The notes under the pieces were generated by a model. The model was not told the origin of the DNA and searched no databases. It was given only the letters and a program-made list of their open reading frames with translations. From positions 405,188-469,187 of the forward strand of contig CAWJKM010000007.1 in assembly GCA_963843525.1 (NCBI GenBank): a DNA stretch of 64,000 nt, written 5' to 3'. The stretch is from Ignavibacteriota bacterium. GTDB taxonomy: Bacteria > Bacteroidota > Ignavibacteria > UBA10030 > UBA6906. Positions 1 to 6,775 of the stretch are shown piece by piece. The position numbers and the translations under genes are program-made. The first letter of the stretch is position 1; each line of letters opens with the position of its first letter.

Positions 1-460
1 GGTACGCCTGACAACTGCTATAAGGCCAATCTTCGGGCTCTTTAACAAGCCCCGCTTTGAGGGGGTTCTGGTGTATGTAACTTGCCAAATAGGGAACGCT
101 GTCATCTCGTTTGGCCCATTTCATTCCATATCGCCCCTGAAACAGATGGCCGCTGCGAGAAAGAGAGTGATTTAGCACTTTGGCGTAATCGCCGCAAACC
201 TGTTCCATCAAGCCTGATATTCCAAACGCCTGTAGCTGCTGGATCAACAGGTGAAAGTGGTTCGGCATGAGACAAAATGCCATTATGAGGAGCTCGCTGG
301 GGTTGAAGTACTGATTGATCAACTCCAGGAACTTCCTGTAATTCCGCTCCGAATGAAAAATAACCTGCTTATTGACACCTCTATTGTAGACGTGGAACGC
401 TTCGTTGCATGAGCGGATCATCTCAGATCGGGAATGTGCCTGCCGCGGAAATCGATTCAT
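1..460 (-). mobile_element. IS200/IS605-family HuH (Y1) tyrosine transposase, RAYT-like. The 5' end is complete (ATG at 458-460); the 3' end runs off the window start.
   Basis: Manual reverse-strand translation gives MNRFPRQAHSRSEMIRSCNEAFHVYNRGVNKQVIFHSERNYRKFLELINQYFNPSELLIMAFCLMPNHFHLLIQ...GHLFQGRYGMKWAKRDDSVPYLASYIHQNPLKAGLV... The HuH motif (HFHLL), GHLxQGRY and YIHxNP blocks are typical of the PF01797 transposase family. The ORF track omits it because it is window-truncated. Confidence 0.72.
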
Positions 461-683
461 TAGAATGTCCCTTGCTGTTCTGTTCGTTCGAAGATGGTCT
501 TCATATCGGCTTCAAGCATGCGGGACTTACGATTGTACTACGGACCAGTGGCCCATTGGGACTTCACTTGCGGCGATTTTCCATTTCTGTAGATGGTTGA
601 TTCCAAGTTGCCCGGTCCCAAGTGAAGGCCCTCATCTATCTATACGGCGCGCCCGGCCGATTTCCGACTACGAAAGGAAAAAA

Positions 684-705
684 GTGGCAGCCTAGGCAAC
701 CGTAG
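684..705. repeat. REP-like imperfect palindrome copy A: gtgg-GGCAGCCTAGGCAACC-gtag, preceded by an A-rich tract
   Basis: 16-bp near-palindrome centred on CCTAGG. Related copies at 747-762, 1961-1976 and 2071-2086. Sits about 225 bp upstream of the transposase start. Confidence 0.5.
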
Positions 706-744
706 ATTCTTCAAACGATCTTGCGGCAGAGCCGGCCGAAAAAG

Positions 745-764
745 ATGGCAGGCTAGGCAACCTT
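745..764. repeat. REP-like palindrome copy B (GGCAGGCTAGGCAACC), preceded by gaaaaagat
   Basis: Same motif family as 686-701, and the same A-rich 5' flank (gaaaaag[at]gg). Confidence 0.5.
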
Positions 765-1434
765 CTTTTCTCTCTTTGCACGATTGATACTTCAAGGCTC
801 AACAGCGTGTTCGATGAGAACCCCATCTGTGCTCCCCCTTCCAGGTGCGCAAACAACTTGTTTCCCACCCTGCTAGGAGCTCATCGGCGACAGAATCTAC
901 CGATACGTCCATGGACACTGACCAGCATCGCTCCAATTCTCGCGATGGCGATTCTCAGTGCAGGAATTGCATCCGGTGAGGGAGACCTCCTCTAGAAGAC
1001 GGCGCACGGCAAACTCGAAGTCGGAAGGAAAGAATCTCCGCTTAATTACGCCTACACAGTCCCCCTGAGCAACGACGAGATGCCCCTGATCCTGAGCGAT
1101 CAACCTCTGCAGACAAGGGTCTCAAGGACGTCTTTGAACGTATCCTCCGGGAGGAAGCCAACGAGATCCATACGGTCGAGTGCGTTCTCGATGCTCAGAA
1201 AACACCGATCTCCCCCTCGATACGGCACAAGGCTTTAACGACCGGCGGCGGTGGCGGATCGACGGAGGATCTCTTTGAGGCTACCAGGATCGATTCGAAG
1301 AGTGTCGCAGGAGGAGTCTATCGCAACTCTCCCGGATAATTTGAAGGTGTGAAGTGCACCTATGACGCCACATTCACGTCACCAGTCTGGAAGGAACCCC
1401 CGCCCAACTACAGTGGCGCCGCAGCAATTACTAG

Positions 1435-1728
1435 CCTCCAGGGAAAGGCGGCCCTTGTTTTCTTGAAAGCGGGCGAACGGGCATTGTCGCTGCGGTCAAA
1501 AGAACAATTGTCGTGAGCAGCCACGCCGATCTGGATGGTCCGAAGGGTATAGACATCGTGGAAATGATGAAACTCGATCCGGACCCGGAAAAAGCCAGAA
1601 TCGCGCGAGTCGATGTGAATGGAGAAACTGCGGTGATAACTCTTGAACAAAAGACAAAGGTGTCAAGGGAGACTACTACCATCAATCTCAATTTGGAAGA
1701 TGGACAGTGGAATGTCTCCCCTCGATAA
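1435..1728 (+). CDS. Small hypothetical protein, possibly a gene remnant
   Basis: Open frame only, with a GTG start at 1513 in the ORF track. No recognisable motifs. Embedded in a repeat-rich non-coding stretch. Confidence 0.15.
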   Translation, partial: PPGKGGPCFLESGRTGIVAAVKRTIVVSSHADLDGPKGIDIVEMMKLDPDPEKARIARVDVNGETAVITLEQKTKVSRETTTINLNLEDGQWNVSPR

Positions 1729-1956
1729 GCCCACTCAAATCATCGGCGTCCCTTTCCTAAGGACTCTTCATGCTTCGTGCTACTAGCGCGCGGCTCTCCA
1801 TGGAGCGTACTACATTCCGGGCTCAGGACCAGACCTGAGCCCTTCGCACTGTAACTCCCAGGGGTGTGCGTTTAGACACCTAGCGGCGTCGGAGTTTTCT
1901 TCGGGACAGGTGTAAGCGGTCAAGCTCTCGATCCGTCATTGACAGGTAGCCAAGAA

Positions 1957-1978
1957 AAGTGGCTGCCTAGGCAGCCAG
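1957..1978. repeat. Perfect 16-bp palindrome GGCTGCCTAGGCAGCC (copy C), preceded by agaaaagt
   Basis: Exact reverse-complement symmetry. It is a member of the same repeat family as copies A, B and D. Confidence 0.5.
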
Positions 1979-2062
1979 GAATATTCTTCCACAACGCGGG
2001 CACCCTACAGATCGACTCCAAACGAGGAACTCATATCTTGGGCCGCTATGTTTTTGCCCGGC

Positions 2063-2094
2063 AAAAACATGGCAGCCTAGGCAACCATGTTTTT
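2063..2094. repeat. Extended 32-bp palindrome aaaaacatgg-CAGCCTAGGCAA-ccatgttttt (copy D)
   Basis: Core GGCAGCCTAGGCAACC identical to copy A. The 10-bp flanking arms are perfectly inverted. Lies about 390 bp upstream of the sensor-kinase gene start. Confidence 0.5.
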
Positions 2095-2482
2095 TCCCCC
2101 AACATCAGTAATCCCCCCCCTTTTTACGCAATGGCCCCCCCTTTGTGCACTTAACAAAGCCCTCCGGCACCGTTTCCTGCCCCTCCTCAAAACAACAGCC
2201 GATTTCCGGTCAATTGTGCGTGTTTCGGAACAGAAGAGAAAGGGGCTGTTGGTATGGAAATTGTACCTTTTCATAGTCGCACTTGATAGAGAACCGTTCT
2301 GGAGGGCTATGTAGAAGCGATTTTGGGAAGTCTACTTCTGGGGATTAGCAATGCTCTGTTCCCTGCGACATAAGGTACTCCTGCAGCAAACATACCCCTC
2401 TGCTCTCCACCTCCAGAGGGGCAACGATTGCCTCCCTCGTGGGTCATCCGCCGGGAACAGTCCCATCCGTTTATGGCTCTTG

Positions 2483-5400
2483 ATGACGCTGGTGCTTCTC
2501 GCATCAATCCACCCCGGGAAAGTTCTTGCGCTTGACCCTCATAAAAGTATCGGCCAATACGGGCACGATGTCTGGCTGCGACAAAACGGCCTCCCGGCAA
2601 ATATCGTGAATACCCTCCTCCAGTCCAGCGACAGCTATCTCTGGGTCGGAACGACATCAGGCCTCTATCGTTTCGATGGCGTCCGCTTCAGCGAATGTTC
2701 CCTTGACACGCAGAAGCAGAAAATCTCAGAAACCATCGCCGCCGTGTGTGAATCGTCGGACAGGAGCATCTGGGTCGGAACGCTGTATGGCGGCCTGCGC
2801 CGCATTAAAGACGATCAGGTATCCATGTTCGGCGAAAAGGAAGGCTTGCCCGAACGGCAAATCCGAACCCTGTTCGAGAGCCGAGCCGGCCATCTCTGGG
2901 TGGGCACCACCAATGGGCTGTTTCGATCTTCTGGAAACACCTTTGTGCCCGTCCCCGTCGACCAGACCTTTTTCACCGGCATCACAGAGGATACCCAGGG
3001 AAGGATCTGGGTAGCAACTCATGACGGGGTCCGGATCTTCGACGATGAACGGATGACGTTGCTGCAGAGCCTCAGAACTGCAGAAGGACTCCCCGATAAA
3101 ATCACCACAGCGATTGCGTCGGATAGCAAGGGCAGTGTTTGGGTAGGGACTTCCCACGGTCTGTTCAAATGGAAGAACGGATCGACAACCGTGTATTCGA
3201 CAGGAAATGGCCTTCACAATGACCATGTCGGTGCAATGCATGAAGACAAAGACGGCAACTTCTGGGTCGGCACGTTTGGAGGTCTCTATCGCGAGCGCGA
3301 TGATGTCTGGACTTCCTTCACCGTGGATGACGGGCTGAGCAATAACCAGGTCCTCTCGATTACCGAAGATCGAGAGGGGAGTCTCTGGGTGGGAACACTC
3401 GAAGGATTGAATAGATTTAAAGATGTCAACCTTACGACGTATACCACGAAGGACGGGCTCGGTAATGACTACGTTTCAGGGATCGCCGAAACTCCTGACG
3501 GGGCAATCTACTTTCTCAGTAATGCAAACTCAACCGTTTCCTGCCTGCGAAACGGGCGGATGAGTACGTTTTCAAGCTCAGTCGGACCTACGTATGTCGC
3601 CCGCGACGGGAGCCTCTGGATCGGACAGAACGGCACACTGATCAATATCAGGAATGGACACATCACACGGTTCGATACCACTGCAGGTTTGCCCGCCAAG
3701 TGGATTTCCGCAATAACGGAAGATGCGCAAGGGTTGATCATCTTCGTGGATCATACCGGCTTGAAGAGATTTACCGGCGGTCGGGCCCGGCCTTTCCTCT
3801 TGCGGGATGGCAGGATGTATCCTTCCACGGAATACGTCGAATGTTTCTATACAGACCCCGGCGACACGCTATGGGTCGGGACGACAAATGGTCTCGTGCG
3901 AATGTATCGCGGGGAGTATAGCGTGTTCGGCACAGTCGATGGGATGGCCGATTACTGGGTGAGCGCCATCTATGATGATCACCGGGGAAGCCTCTGGTTT
4001 GGATCCGCGAATGGCGGATTGACCAGGTATTCGAACGGCAGGTTCACCGCCTACTCCGCGAAGAGCGGACTCTTCTCCAATGAGATCTATTGTGTTCTCG
4101 GCGATGCCCGGGGCGATCTCTGGCTGGGAAGTTCCCGGGGGATCGAGCACATTGCCAGAGCGGATCTGGATGGCTATGCAGCCGGAACATTGCCCGCGAT
4201 GTCGTCCCATGTTTATTCTATGGTGGACGGCATGAAGTCTGATGCATGCTTTGACGAGTGGCAACCCGCCGGAATCCGCGCGACAGACGGTCGCCTCTGG
4301 TTCTCAACGAAGAAAGGGGCGGTAATGATCGATCCGGGTGCCTTCAAACGGAACGAAGTCGTGCCGCCGGTCAGGATCGAGAAAGTGGTTGTCGAACAAC
4401 GAACAGTCGCTCCGGAACAGAAGCTGGTATTCGAGCCCGGCACAAAGAATCTCGAATTCCATTATACTGCCCTGAGTTTCCTGGTTCCCGAGCGCACGCT
4501 CTTCAAATACAAACTTGAGGGGTACGATCGAGACTGGGTGGAGGCTGGAACACGGCGCGCAGCCTATTATACGAGTCTCCCCCCCGGGAATTACCGCTTC
4601 CGGGTCATTGCCTGCAATAACGACGGACTGTGGAACGAAGACGGAGCGGACATCGGAGTAATCCTTACCCCGCACTTTTACGAGACATACTGGTTTACCG
4701 TCCTGGTTGCCGGTGTGATCCTGGCGTTAATCGTCCTCATTGTCAAGATGCGGCTCAGAACACTGCAGAGAAGGGAAAAGGAGCTCGAAAGAATCGTCCA
4801 TGTCAGGACAAAGGAGGTGCAGGATCAACGGTCCTTCCTTCGCAAAGTCATTGATTTGAATCCGAGCTTCATATTCGCAAAGGATTCTGAAGGGAGATTC
4901 ACCCTTGCCAACCGCGCGCTCGCTGAGGCATATGGGGCGACATCCGACGGCCTCATCGGAAGGACGGATGAGGCATTCAATCGTCACGGCGAGCAAGTGG
5001 ATAAATTCCGTGCCGATGATCGAGAAGTTTTTGAATCAAAGACGGAGAAGTACATCCCGGAGGAACGATTCACCGGGGCGGACGGCGAATCGCGTTGGCT
5101 GCAAGTCTCGAAAATCCCGATTACAAGCGAAGAGGGGACTGTGCAGCAGGTGCTTGCGGTAGCCACCGATATTACTGCGCAGAAAGCCGCAAAAGAAGTC
5201 GCCGAGGCCGCTACCCGTTCCAAAAGCGAATTCCTCGCAAATATGTCTCATGAAATCCGGACGCCGATGAACGCGGTGATAGGGATGTCCGGTCTTCTGG
5301 GCGACACAAATCTCGATGCAGAACAACGGGAGTTTGTCGATATCATCCGGACCAGTGGCGACACGCTGCTCACGATCATCAATGACATCCTGGACTTCTC

Positions 5401-6775
5401 GAAAATCGAGAGCGGCAAGCTCGAACTGGAAACCCAGGCGTTTGATTTGGCCCGTTGCATTGAAGATTCGCTGGACCTTCTTAGTTCAAAAGCATCCGAG
5501 AAGAGCATAGAACTGGCGTACCTCCTGGACGCGAGAACTCCCCGCGACATCGTGGGAGATAGGACGCGCCTCCGGCAAATCCTGATGAACCTCGTCGGCA
5601 ACGCTGTGAAGTTTACCCAAAACGGGGAAGTCATCGTTTCGGTCTCATCGAAATTGCTGCAGGATGATGAATATGAACTGCAATTTGCCGTTCGGGACAC
5701 CGGGATAGGCATACCGAAAGACCGGTTGGATCGATTGTTCAAGTCTTTCAGCCAGGTCGACTCTTCCACGACGCGGCACTATGGAGGAACGGGATTGGGG
5801 TTGGCGATCAGCAAGAGATTGAGTGAGATGATGAAGGGGAGGATGTGGGTGGAGAGCACGGAAGGGAAGGGTTCAACGTTCTCGTTTACGATCATCGCGA
5901 CGGCCGCGCCCAGCATTACCCGCGTGTCGCGGAAGGATGGGGAATTGCAGCTGGACGGGAAAGCGGTCTTGATTGTCGACGATAATGCGTCTAATCGACA
6001 GATCCTCACTCTGCAAACCCAGTCATGGGGAATGAAACCGACGGCTGTCGCTGACGGCCGCCAGGCCTTGGAGCTCCTCAAGCAAGAAAAGAAGTTCTCT
6101 CTGGCAATACTTGATATGCAAATGCCGGAGATGAATGGGGCACAGCTTTCCATCCAAATCCGCCGGACTTCAGGACTCCCGGCGCTTCCTCTCATATTGC
6201 TCACATCTGTGTCTGAGAGTAGCCGTCAATTGCGTGAACAGTATGGCGAGCTCAGCATTGCAGCCCATTTGAACAAACCCGTCAAATCGTCGCAGCTCTA
6301 TGAGACCATAGTCAGTGTTCTCGCCGATCACATAACAACAGAGCAAAAAGATCCGGTGAGCGAGGCCAAAGCTGTTGAGGGTGGTACAACGAGGAGACTC
6401 CGGATTCTGGTCGCCGAAGACAACGTGATCAATCAGAAAGTAGCCGTCCGGATTCTTGAACGATTTGGGTATCGTGCGGACATTGCTGCGAACGGCGTCG
6501 AGGCCATCGAAGCGATTCGCCGTCAGTCCTACGACCTGGTATTCATGGATGTCCATATGCCGGGAATGGACGGCCTCGAGGCAACACGGCACATTTGCAG
6601 CGAGTGGCCAACCGGGCGGCCCAAGATCATCGCGATGACTGCGGATGCGTTGCAGGGGGACCGTGAGCAATGTCTGGAAGCCGGCATGGACGGGTACATC
6701 AGCAAACCTGTCCGTGTAGAGGAACTGCGGACTATTCTGGAGAAGTATGAGGCGGAAGTCTGTGACCGCGTGTAG
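2483..6775 (+). CDS. Hybrid sensor histidine kinase/response regulator. Periplasmic beta-propeller + Y_Y_Y sensor, TM helix, PAS, HisKA/HATPase, and two receiver domains. No DNA-binding output domain.
   Basis: Repeated 'LWVGT..GL.R..G' propeller repeats; TM helix FTVLVAGVILALIVLIVKM; H-box SHEIRTPMNAVIGM; G-box GTGLGLAISKRL. REC1 is LIVDDNASNRQ...DMQMPEMNG; REC2 is ILVAEDNVINQ...DVHMPGMDG. The ORF is open from 2351. I prefer the ATG at 2483 because it begins a hydrophobic signal-like segment. Confidence 0.85.
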   Translation: MTLVLLASIHPGKVLALDPHKSIGQYGHDVWLRQNGLPANIVNTLLQSSDSYLWVGTTSGLYRFDGVRFSECSLDTQKQKISETIAAVCESSDRSIWVGTLYGGLRRIKDDQVSMFGEKEGLPERQIRTLFESRAGHLWVGTTNGLFRSSGNTFVPVPVDQTFFTGITEDTQGRIWVATHDGVRIFDDERMTLLQSLRTAEGLPDKITTAIASDSKGSVWVGTSHGLFKWKNGSTTVYSTGNGLHNDHVGAMHEDKDGNFWVGTFGGLYRERDDVWTSFTVDDGLSNNQVLSITEDREGSLWVGTLEGLNRFKDVNLTTYTTKDGLGNDYVSGIAETPDGAIYFLSNANSTVSCLRNGRMSTFSSSVGPTYVARDGSLWIGQNGTLINIRNGHITRFDTTAGLPAKWISAITEDAQGLIIFVDHTGLKRFTGGRARPFLLRDGRMYPSTEYVECFYTDPGDTLWVGTTNGLVRMYRGEYSVFGTVDGMADYWVSAIYDDHRGSLWFGSANGGLTRYSNGRFTAYSAKSGLFSNEIYCVLGDARGDLWLGSSRGIEHIARADLDGYAAGTLPAMSSHVYSMVDGMKSDACFDEWQPAGIRATDGRLWFSTKKGAVMIDPGAFKRNEVVPPVRIEKVVVEQRTVAPEQKLVFEPGTKNLEFHYTALSFLVPERTLFKYKLEGYDRDWVEAGTRRAAYYTSLPPGNYRFRVIACNNDGLWNEDGADIGVILTPHFYETYWFTVLVAGVILALIVLIVKMRLRTLQRREKELERIVHVRTKEVQDQRSFLRKVIDLNPSFIFAKDSEGRFTLANRALAEAYGATSDGLIGRTDEAFNRHGEQVDKFRADDREVFESKTEKYIPEERFTGADGESRWLQVSKIPITSEEGTVQQVLAVATDITAQKAAKEVAEAATRSKSEFLANMSHEIRTPMNAVIGMSGLLGDTNLDAEQREFVDIIRTSGDTLLTIINDILDFSKIESGKLELETQAFDLARCIEDSLDLLSSKASEKSIELAYLLDARTPRDIVGDRTRLRQILMNLVGNAVKFTQNGEVIVSVSSKLLQDDEYELQFAVRDTGIGIPKDRLDRLFKSFSQVDSSTTRHYGGTGLGLAISKRLSEMMKGRMWVESTEGKGSTFSFTIIATAAPSITRVSRKDGELQLDGKAVLIVDDNASNRQILTLQTQSWGMKPTAVADGRQALELLKQEKKFSLAILDMQMPEMNGAQLSIQIRRTSGLPALPLILLTSVSESSRQLREQYGELSIAAHLNKPVKSSQLYETIVSVLADHITTEQKDPVSEAKAVEGGTTRRLRILVAEDNVINQKVAVRILERFGYRADIAANGVEAIEAIRRQSYDLVFMDVHMPGMDGLEATRHICSEWPTGRPKIIAMTADALQGDREQCLEAGMDGYISKPVRVEELRTILEKYEAEVCDRV

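Follow-up and report, generated by a model that had tools for sequence, protein, structure and literature searches.

The first 460 nucleotides of the 64-kb stretch of Ignavibacteriota DNA analyzed here (64,000 nucleotides of contig CAWJKM010000007.1, hereafter the window) raise the question of whether the window begins inside a transposon or inside a resident gene that acts on short repeats around it. An initial annotation read the segment as a textbook PF01797-type Y1 transposase gene on the reverse strand, cut by the window boundary and for this reason unlisted, of the single-gene type associated with repetitive extragenic palindromic (REP) sequences and not an insertion sequence (IS) with inverted repeats, and took it to mark a mobile or formerly mobile locus. 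Based on the evidence set out below, we assign a probability of roughly 0.77 to the reading that window positions 460 to 1 (minus strand) cover the 5' three-quarters of a gene, functional and present in single copy, that encodes a 199-residue Y1 HUH endonuclease/transposase acting on single-stranded DNA (ssDNA), of the REP-associated class 2, lying in a REPtron/TIRtron-like unit. The REP association is assigned because cognate repeats at positions 678–2096 flank the gene, recur at its orthologs, and disperse without it; the initial annotation made no mention of these repeats.

An intact Y1 transposase gene at the window edge

Translation of the minus strand from position 460 to position 2 yields 153 sense codons free of stops, beginning with an ATG at 460–458 and encoding the N-terminal part of the protein, MNRFPRQAHSRSEMIRSCNEAFHVYNRGVNKQVIFHSERNYRKFLELINQYFNPSELLIMAFCLMPNHFHLLIQQLQAFGISGLMEQVCGDYAKVLNHSLSRSGHLFQGRYGMKWAKRDDSVPYLASYIHQNPLKAGLVKEPEDWPYSSCQAY; the closest upstream in-frame stop lies at 514–512. 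The open reading frame (ORF) exits the window at position 1, and the gene is missing from the ORF list because that list omits ORFs crossing an end, as the initial annotation had supposed. A protein search recovered a database entry of 199 residues, P0001, with 100% identity across all 153 window residues, and the approximately 46 C-terminal codons outside the window were recovered from two contigs of other samples. The first, L001 (Logan SRR28002858, 1,205 bp), has 459 of the 460 coding bases in common with the window and reaches 424 bp further; the second, L042 (JGI Ga0316624_10135610, 1,809 bp), carries the same locus from another strain, with 94.5% nucleotide and 95.5% protein identity and all 199 codons intact. 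The ratio of nonsynonymous to synonymous substitution rates (dN/dS) between the L001 and L042 alleles is 0.13, and the gene is therefore under purifying selection and not a relic. The sole coding difference between the window and L001 falls on window position 1 (g in the window, t in L001), where codon 154, ATC (Ile), would become a codon starting with C on the minus strand; this mismatch may be an edge artefact.

The protein belongs to the Y1_Tnp family. The window fragment matches Pfam PF01797 with E=2.3e-11 and 44.3 bits, and full-length P0001 scores 43.4 bits, against a gathering score of 23 bits. The three motifs cited in the initial annotation are all present on the minus strand: the HUH metal-binding motif H68-F-H70-L-L, inside MPNHFHLL, at 259–245; GHLFQGRY at 151–128; and the catalytic tyrosine motif Y128-I-H-Q-N132-P133 at 79–62. 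In an alignment of 120 homologs, H68, H70, G104, Y128, and N132 are invariant. The sole solved structure matched by sequence is that of Escherichia coli TnpA-REP (PDB 4er8, E=0.007), in which H59/H61 and Y115 pair with H68/H70 and Y128 of the window protein. The two outcomes that had been named as telling against the transposase call, an extended ORF lacking the catalytic Tyr region and failure of PF01797, were examined and neither applies.

The same relative is returned by the predicted fold. An AlphaFold (AF2) model of the protein, with a pLDDT of 92.5, is matched best in the PDB by 4er8_A, the REP-hairpin complex of TnpA-REP (E=4e-8, target TM 0.73), and the top 29 PDB matches found by Foldseek are all Y1 transposases. 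The transposases of IS608, ISDra2, and IS200 match about four orders of magnitude more weakly than 4er8_A. The Tyr motif has N at Y+4 and P at Y+5, the "Y---NP" signature of class 2 (TnpA-REP-like) enzymes, where IS200 has "Y---Q" (Quentin et al. 2018, PMC6006769, Table 1). The NCBIfam IS200 equivalog NF033573 gives 13.6 bits against a cutoff of 55. No second copy of the Y1 gene was found in the 64-kb window or in the approximately 200 kb of related loci searched, the orthologs of P0001 are each recorded on just one to two contigs, and no tnpB-sized ORF was found beside the gene. The HMM score, the class 2 Tyr motif, and the copy number in these loci led us to reject an IS200 assignment.

Flanking palindromes and their dispersal

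Four copies of a REP-like palindrome, found by sequence scan and characterized by folding, lie on the plus strand of the window as two doublets on the promoter side of the Y1 gene. Copy 1 (678–711) has an exact core, GGCAGCCTAGGCAACC, runs antisense to the gene, and makes a poor hairpin with a decayed 3' arm. Copy 2 (739–772), 61 nt away in the same orientation, has one core mismatch. Copy 3 (1953–1986) is a symmetrized variant, TGGCTGCCTAGGCAGCCA, with a perfect 7-bp stem, and was also picked up by a terminator scan. Copy 4 (2063–2096) matches the family consensus, AAAAACATGGCAGCCTAGGCAACCATGTTTTT, perfectly. All four are held by the gene-poor 1.9 kb between the Y1 gene and the next gene (461–2350). 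With up to three mismatches allowed, the 17-nt core TGGCAGCCTAGGCAACC occurs at four sites spanning 685–2086 and nowhere in the remaining ~62 kb of the window (the scan lists five matches, since the symmetric copy 3 counts on both strands; the chance expectation is 0.1). The palindrome is the sole non-coding repeat family in the window, the other families being protein-internal (BNR, Reg_prop). In both L001 and L042 a fifth copy in the opposite orientation stands 10–20 nt past the stop codon, just off the window, so that inverted copies stand on both sides of the gene. The initial statement that this is not an IS with inverted repeats thus needs dividing: the gene is not of the IS200 type, but inverted palindrome copies do bracket it, an arrangement published as REPtron/TIRtron.

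The consensus, AAAAA-CATGG-CA-GCC-TA-GGC-AA-CCATG-TTTTT, is a 34-nt imperfect palindrome interrupted by a 2x2 mismatch (C-A versus A-A). This CA/AA mismatch, present in copy 4, is retained in 50+ of 65 copies, and the 5' arm of the palindrome is better conserved than the 3' arm. As ssDNA, the consensus copy at 2063–2096 folds with -8.9 kcal/mol (z = -3.2). These data are compatible with decay of the copies from a palindromic master. Covariation in the outer stem, apparent by eye, was dropped after a shuffle test, and the claim is limited to a palindromic consensus.

The pairing of gene and repeat extends beyond the window. Four orthologs (P0003–P0006) are 54–57% identical to P0001 over the full length and 59–63% over the window fragment, and each of their loci has two to four copies of the same palindrome 160–330 nt upstream, antisense to the gene as in the window. 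The palindrome is present on the promoter side in 7 of 7 homologous loci examined. The distance from the gene up to the first repeat is 160–225 nt in six of the seven and 105 nt at the diverged P0002 locus, where a diverged version of the repeat, GGTACCCTAGGCATCC, stands both up- and downstream of the gene. Such co-divergence is what one expects of an enzyme and its substrate. More distant homologs, P0011 (45% identity) and P0038 (39%, from a Candidatus Leptofilum genome), are each tightly bracketed by their own unrelated 31–33-nt palindromes, and flanking hairpins are therefore a family trait. The units of these two homologs (L058:9913–10618 and L059:9950–10598) have perfect palindromes no more than 90 nt from the gene, measure ~650–700 bp from hairpin to hairpin, and look more IS-like than the window locus; the Ca. 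Leptofilum genome carrying P0038 is 6.36 Mb in size.

The repeats also occur without the gene. A scan of 185,579 species genomes with the query AAANNTGGCWGSCTAGGCARCC returned 20 loci. Fifteen of the scan loci are in one metagenome-assembled genome (MAG), Ignavibacteriota MFD01872.bin.1.311, in which the palindrome is spread over 15 clusters lacking the gene and whose 535-kb contig also encodes the ortholog P0003. The sister MAG bin.1.283 has three, and five occur singly in unrelated taxa, roughly as many as chance would produce. Relaxed matching in the MAG loci gave 53 copies in 17 clusters, of which one adjoins the Y1 gene and 16 are without it. At L022, for which gene calls are present, every copy is intergenic or inside one dubious 80-codon call. 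A scan of JGI metagenomes added 65 copies on 29 contigs, most of which came from three related samples; L042 alone has the Y1 gene. The G+C content of the MAG loci, 0.55–0.58, agrees with the 0.55 of the window, which probably derives from a relative of these MAGs. One orthologous intergenic site, with flanking genes ~76% identical at the nucleotide level, holds one copy in bin.1.283 (L003:3502) and two in bin.1.311 (L002:7292 and 7365); the sites are therefore inherited, with arrays that vary in size over time.

The dominant spacing of the repeats is 40 nt, and arrays reach seven units (L011:1704–1990). A quadruplet of ~190 nt, organized as R-R-spacer-R-R with a semi-conserved central spacer of ~32 nt, recurs in at least six loci and upstream of three orthologs; examples of arrays and quadruplets in the related Ignavibacteriota MAG are L002:1968–2135, L012:5132–5299, L015:1173–1340, L017:3146–3313, L007:3415–3601, and L021:6558–6744. 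The quadruplet as a whole may be the mobile unit.

A different proposal would be that of an autonomous IS200-like insertion sequence, in which the hairpin–gene–hairpin unit (~1.3 kb) moves whole and the window edge records a recent insertion. Such an element would account for the inverted copies bracketing the gene and for the very compact units of the distant homologs, and the neighbors of the Y1 gene in the window lineage, a sensor kinase on one side and a GH130-like ORF on the other, are indeed unlike those of P0003–P0006, which share one synteny in a DUF3795/glyoxalase context. That synteny is kept by four orthologs at just 54–57% identity, which suggests vertical descent. Together with the 16 gene-less repeat clusters, a dN/dS that between strains at one locus argues for a resident gene, the low score with the IS200 model, the class 2 Tyr motif, the absence of a tnpB partner beside the gene, and the single copy in the loci searched, it makes the IS explanation very unlikely. 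The suggestion of a mobile or formerly mobile locus survives for the short repeats, which are most likely mobile, and is in keeping with the differing neighbors in the window; for the gene itself it is countered by the conserved synteny.

Several observations weigh against the assignment of the gene and its palindromes to a functional REP-associated unit. On the DNA side, the three copies nearest the gene fold poorly, and covariation in the stem lacks statistical support (79.4% paired versus 78.7% in column shuffles, 52/500, over 65 copies). The GT[AG]G tag is not found at the hairpin foot, which reads AAAAA[C/T]ATGG, with GTGG in 7 of 67 copies and GTAG in 0. Bidirectional intrinsic terminators have the same A-run/stem/T-run shape. 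Adjacent repeats nearly always point the same way (MAG loci 34:2, metagenome loci 33:1), unlike the inverted pairs of REPINs, and the copy number in the related MAG and metagenome loci is modest, in the tens and not the hundreds. On the protein side, the NCBIfam RAYT equivalog NF047646 (RAYT, REP-associated tyrosine transposase) gives 69.7–70.8 bits against a cutoff of 80, and the five closest homologs (P0002–P0006) fall below it as well, at 63.8–69.1 bits. In E. coli TnpA-REP the residues contacting the GTAG tag are W94, Q95, E100, H101, and R104 (PMC6006769); their counterparts here are F107, Q108, M113, K114, and K117, so that Q alone is kept. In the HMMER alignment GHLFQGRY pairs with I93-W94-Q95-P96-R97-F98 of the E. 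coli enzyme, and Q95 is its one conserved GTAG contact. Finally, the best-fitting motif signature is that of subclass 2.1, reported as REP-less by Quentin et al. (PMC6006769). The word "textbook" therefore does not suit a protein below the RAYT cutoff whose repeats are without the GT[AG]G tag; canonical RAYTs make up subclasses 2.2, 2.4, 2.5, and 2.7.

Two further explanations draw on these observations. The palindromes could be host regulatory elements, either bidirectional terminators or operator sites, unrelated to a Y1 protein that has itself been domesticated for another role on ssDNA. The A-run/GC stem/T-run architecture fits, one copy directly follows the Y1 stop codon, the L022 copies are extragenic, and the best-fitting subclass is one for which no REPs were reported (PMC6006769). 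The terminator scan of window positions 1–2600 called one terminator-like site, copy 3, which is fewer than in shuffled sequences. A 16-nt core common to species whose Y1 proteins are 54–57% identical is not a property of terminators, nor are tandem arrays of up to seven units spaced at 40 nt. At every homologous locus examined the element is found on the promoter side of the gene, a senseless place for that gene's terminator. At the P0002 locus, core and protein have moreover diverged together, and the asymmetric CA/AA mismatch is conserved. We therefore regard regulatory elements as an unlikely explanation. Searches against Rfam returned only one sub-threshold match, to a eukaryotic element, for window positions 1–2600 at E<=1, and no match at the gathering score for two repeat-rich loci.

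Alternatively, the locus could be a decaying relic, with a once-active RAYT, fossil repeats, and a gene that no longer functions. The poor hairpins of the three gene-nearest copies, the modest copy number, and a stem that covariation does not maintain would all be compatible with decay. Nevertheless, the 199-codon ORF is unbroken in three strains and all orthologs, the dN/dS ratio is low, the catalytic residues are all kept, and a perfect consensus copy persists at 2063–2096, which makes a relic the least credible of the three alternatives and highly improbable. A functional gene with cognate repeats remains the preferred reading.

Position among known Y1 transposase systems

Both by sequence and by fold, the window protein is matched best by E. 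coli TnpA-REP/RAYT (Quentin subclass 2.2, Bertels group 2), with which it has in common the HUH and single-Tyr core, the Y---NP signature, and a W-x-[YF]-S-[ST] tail. The genetic organization of the E. coli REP/BIME system (BIME, bacterial interspersed mosaic element) is also alike, in that a single gene lies between imperfect extragenic palindromes of its own, also found dispersed in the genome. E. coli TnpA-REP needs a bulged imperfect palindrome preceded by a conserved motif (PMC8266576), and the window hairpins are likewise interrupted, here by the conserved mismatch. The initial placement in the REP-associated single-gene type, and not with IS200, is borne out by this best match, by the low score with NF033573, and by cognate repeats that flank the gene and disperse elsewhere. 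The likeness has clear bounds: identity in the structural alignment is 16%, the protein scores under the NCBIfam RAYT cutoff, and the repeats have A-run/T-run flanks and no GTAG tag, with four of the five GTAG-contact residues replaced. In contrast to the inverted pairs of REPINs and the alternating orientation of BIMEs, the window-type repeats form same-orientation arrays with a 40-nt period, in tens and not hundreds.

By motif comparison alone, the closest fit is to the TIRYT/TIRtron group (TIR, terminal inverted repeat), that is, TnpAY1 subclass 2.1 and especially 2.1.2, equivalent to Bertels group 1, whose signature NH[YF]H / FQ / Y[IV]HLNP agrees with the consensus of the family. The orthologs and the 120-sequence consensus read NHFH / LFQGR / YIHLNP. 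The window protein itself reads NHFH / FQ / YIHQNP. TIRYT genes are described as flanked by inverted repeats that are sometimes self-complementary and moderately abundant, in dimers or clusters (Di Nocera et al. 2013, PMC3733652), a description that fits the window locus well: here too the gene lies between inverted repeats, possibly self-complementary, belonging to a moderately abundant family in dimers and clusters, and in both cases the members are taxonomically scattered and heterogeneous in length. The modest copy numbers are in line with the figure for group 1, whose flanking 16-mers have ~12 occurrences per replicon, a figure higher than for housekeeping genes and lower than for the REPIN-associated groups 2 and 3 (Bertels et al. 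2017).

The fit to subclass 2.1 is nevertheless incomplete. At 199 residues the window protein is shorter than the median of 238, and a Pfam search of its C-terminal tail found no helix-turn-helix (HTH) or DnaA_C-like domain; subgroup 2.1.2 is heterogeneous, with the C-terminal domain present or absent (PMC6006769). The TIR motif GGGGWSAS is not in the gene-proximal flanks, L001, or L042, and its sole match in window positions 1–2400 is on the minus strand at 1714. Subclass 2.1 is equated with the TIRYTs of Di Nocera et al. by Quentin et al. (2018, PMC6006769), who detected no REP-like sequences for it, whereas such repeats are clear at the window locus.

Subclass 2.6 (Bertels group 5), known from Bacteroidetes and noted for "atypical secondary structures", offers an alternative placement, which like that in 2.1 would follow from motifs. 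YIHQNP fits its YIH[QN]NP pattern, the SS tail motif is present, and untagged hairpins flank the gene and have more copies elsewhere in the genome; the host lineage of the window is probably in the Fibrobacteres–Chlorobi–Bacteroidetes (FCB) group. The differences are that the middle residue of the HuH motif is F in the window protein and L, I, or V in subclass 2.6, that FQ stands in place of WQ, and that the orthologs read YIHLNP. The published 2.6 hairpins (e.g. GCTAGCGCGAGCG...) are unrelated in sequence to the window palindrome.

With the IS200/IS608 TnpA proteins (subclass 1.1), the window protein has in common fold and chemistry (Foldseek E~2e-4) and the principle of recognizing a subterminal hairpin. 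It differs from them in failing the IS200 model, in having Y---NP in place of Y---Q, and in its extra N- and C-terminal segments, and the gene is without tnpB and is not multi-copy in the window and the related loci searched.

Proposed mechanism, surroundings, and significance

By analogy with E. coli TnpA-REP (4er8, PMC8266576), the Y1 protein would bind the folded hairpin on ssDNA, for example on the lagging-strand template. H68 and H70 would hold a divalent metal, and Y128 would cut beside the hairpin through a 5'-phosphotyrosine intermediate and then rejoin the strand. In this way the enzyme could copy, delete, or rearrange the short repeats in trans without moving its own gene. The enzyme probably recognizes its target by the conserved CA/AA mismatch and the well-kept 5' arm, features that would replace the GTAG tag of classical REPs. 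Repeat binding, cleavage, and mobilization by the window protein are all proposed on the strength of this analogy.

Between the start codon and the first repeat, positions 461–677 (minus strand) form the 5' leader and probable promoter region of the gene, with a Shine-Dalgarno-like AAGGGA 8–13 nt before the ATG. The orthologs share a conserved motif, TCGGAAAAC...AGTATA, in the interval from the repeat cluster to the start codon (alignment columns ~270–310; L022 ~5850–5890), and a diverged version, TCGTAAGTC...GATATG, lies at ~525–560 (minus strand) of the window. This upstream motif may be the promoter of the Y1 gene; a scan for sigma-70 promoters in window positions 1–2600 found no promoter-like sites. 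Between the two repeat doublets, a gene search of the 780–1950 spacer gave no significant Pfam match. Two plus-strand ORFs in different frames within 1349–1728 (1349–1516 and 1513–1728) resemble one small protein frameshifted near 1510; when fused they give a sub-threshold match to Pfam Lumazine_bd_2 (NTF2-like; E=0.085), and the pair may reflect either a pseudogene or an error in the sequencing.

Immediately beyond the gene-poor stretch with the repeats, positions 2351–6775 (+) encode a hybrid sensor kinase of 1,474 residues with seven Reg_prop repeats, Y_Y_Y, PAS, HisKA, and HATPase_c domains, and two receiver domains. On the other side, the off-window gene downstream of the Y1 gene (L042:1530–1809) has by eye the look of a secreted GH130-type protein and no Pfam match. 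Further into the window, 25204–54216 is a glycan-utilization neighborhood with two GH38 alpha-mannosidase-like genes, three outer-membrane proteins of the CarboxypepD_reg/TonB-dependent receptor type, a CBM9/DUF5916 protein, a sugar transporter, and a BNR-repeat protein.

For the annotation of the window, the analysis supplies a real gene that the ORF track dropped at the window edge and explains the 1.9-kb gene-poor stretch at 461–2350 as the repeat-bearing flank of a REPtron-like unit. The locus is an additional, ordinary member of the known family of REP/TIR-associated Y1 transposases, from a little-studied lineage, and it opens no new class of system. It is mildly interesting in two respects, the untagged, terminator-shaped, same-orientation arrays and the clash with the "no REP" status of the best-fitting subclass. 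A bolder view, which we offer tentatively and consider doubtful on balance, would make it the first representative of a REP system of its own, from an Ignavibacteriota-like lineage, in which a short 2.1-type enzyme, of a branch reported as REP-less, services an untagged, terminator-shaped mismatch hairpin that spreads as same-orientation 40-nt arrays and quadruplets; if true, its logic of recognition and cleavage-site choice would be other than GTAG-guided. More generally, the gene–repeat pair sits between the published categories, with REP-like repeats and a TIRYT/2.1-like protein but no GTAG tag. Such pairs are useful substrates for learning how Y1 enzymes recognize hairpins without a guide tetranucleotide, and they could reveal whether REP arrays double as transcription terminators.

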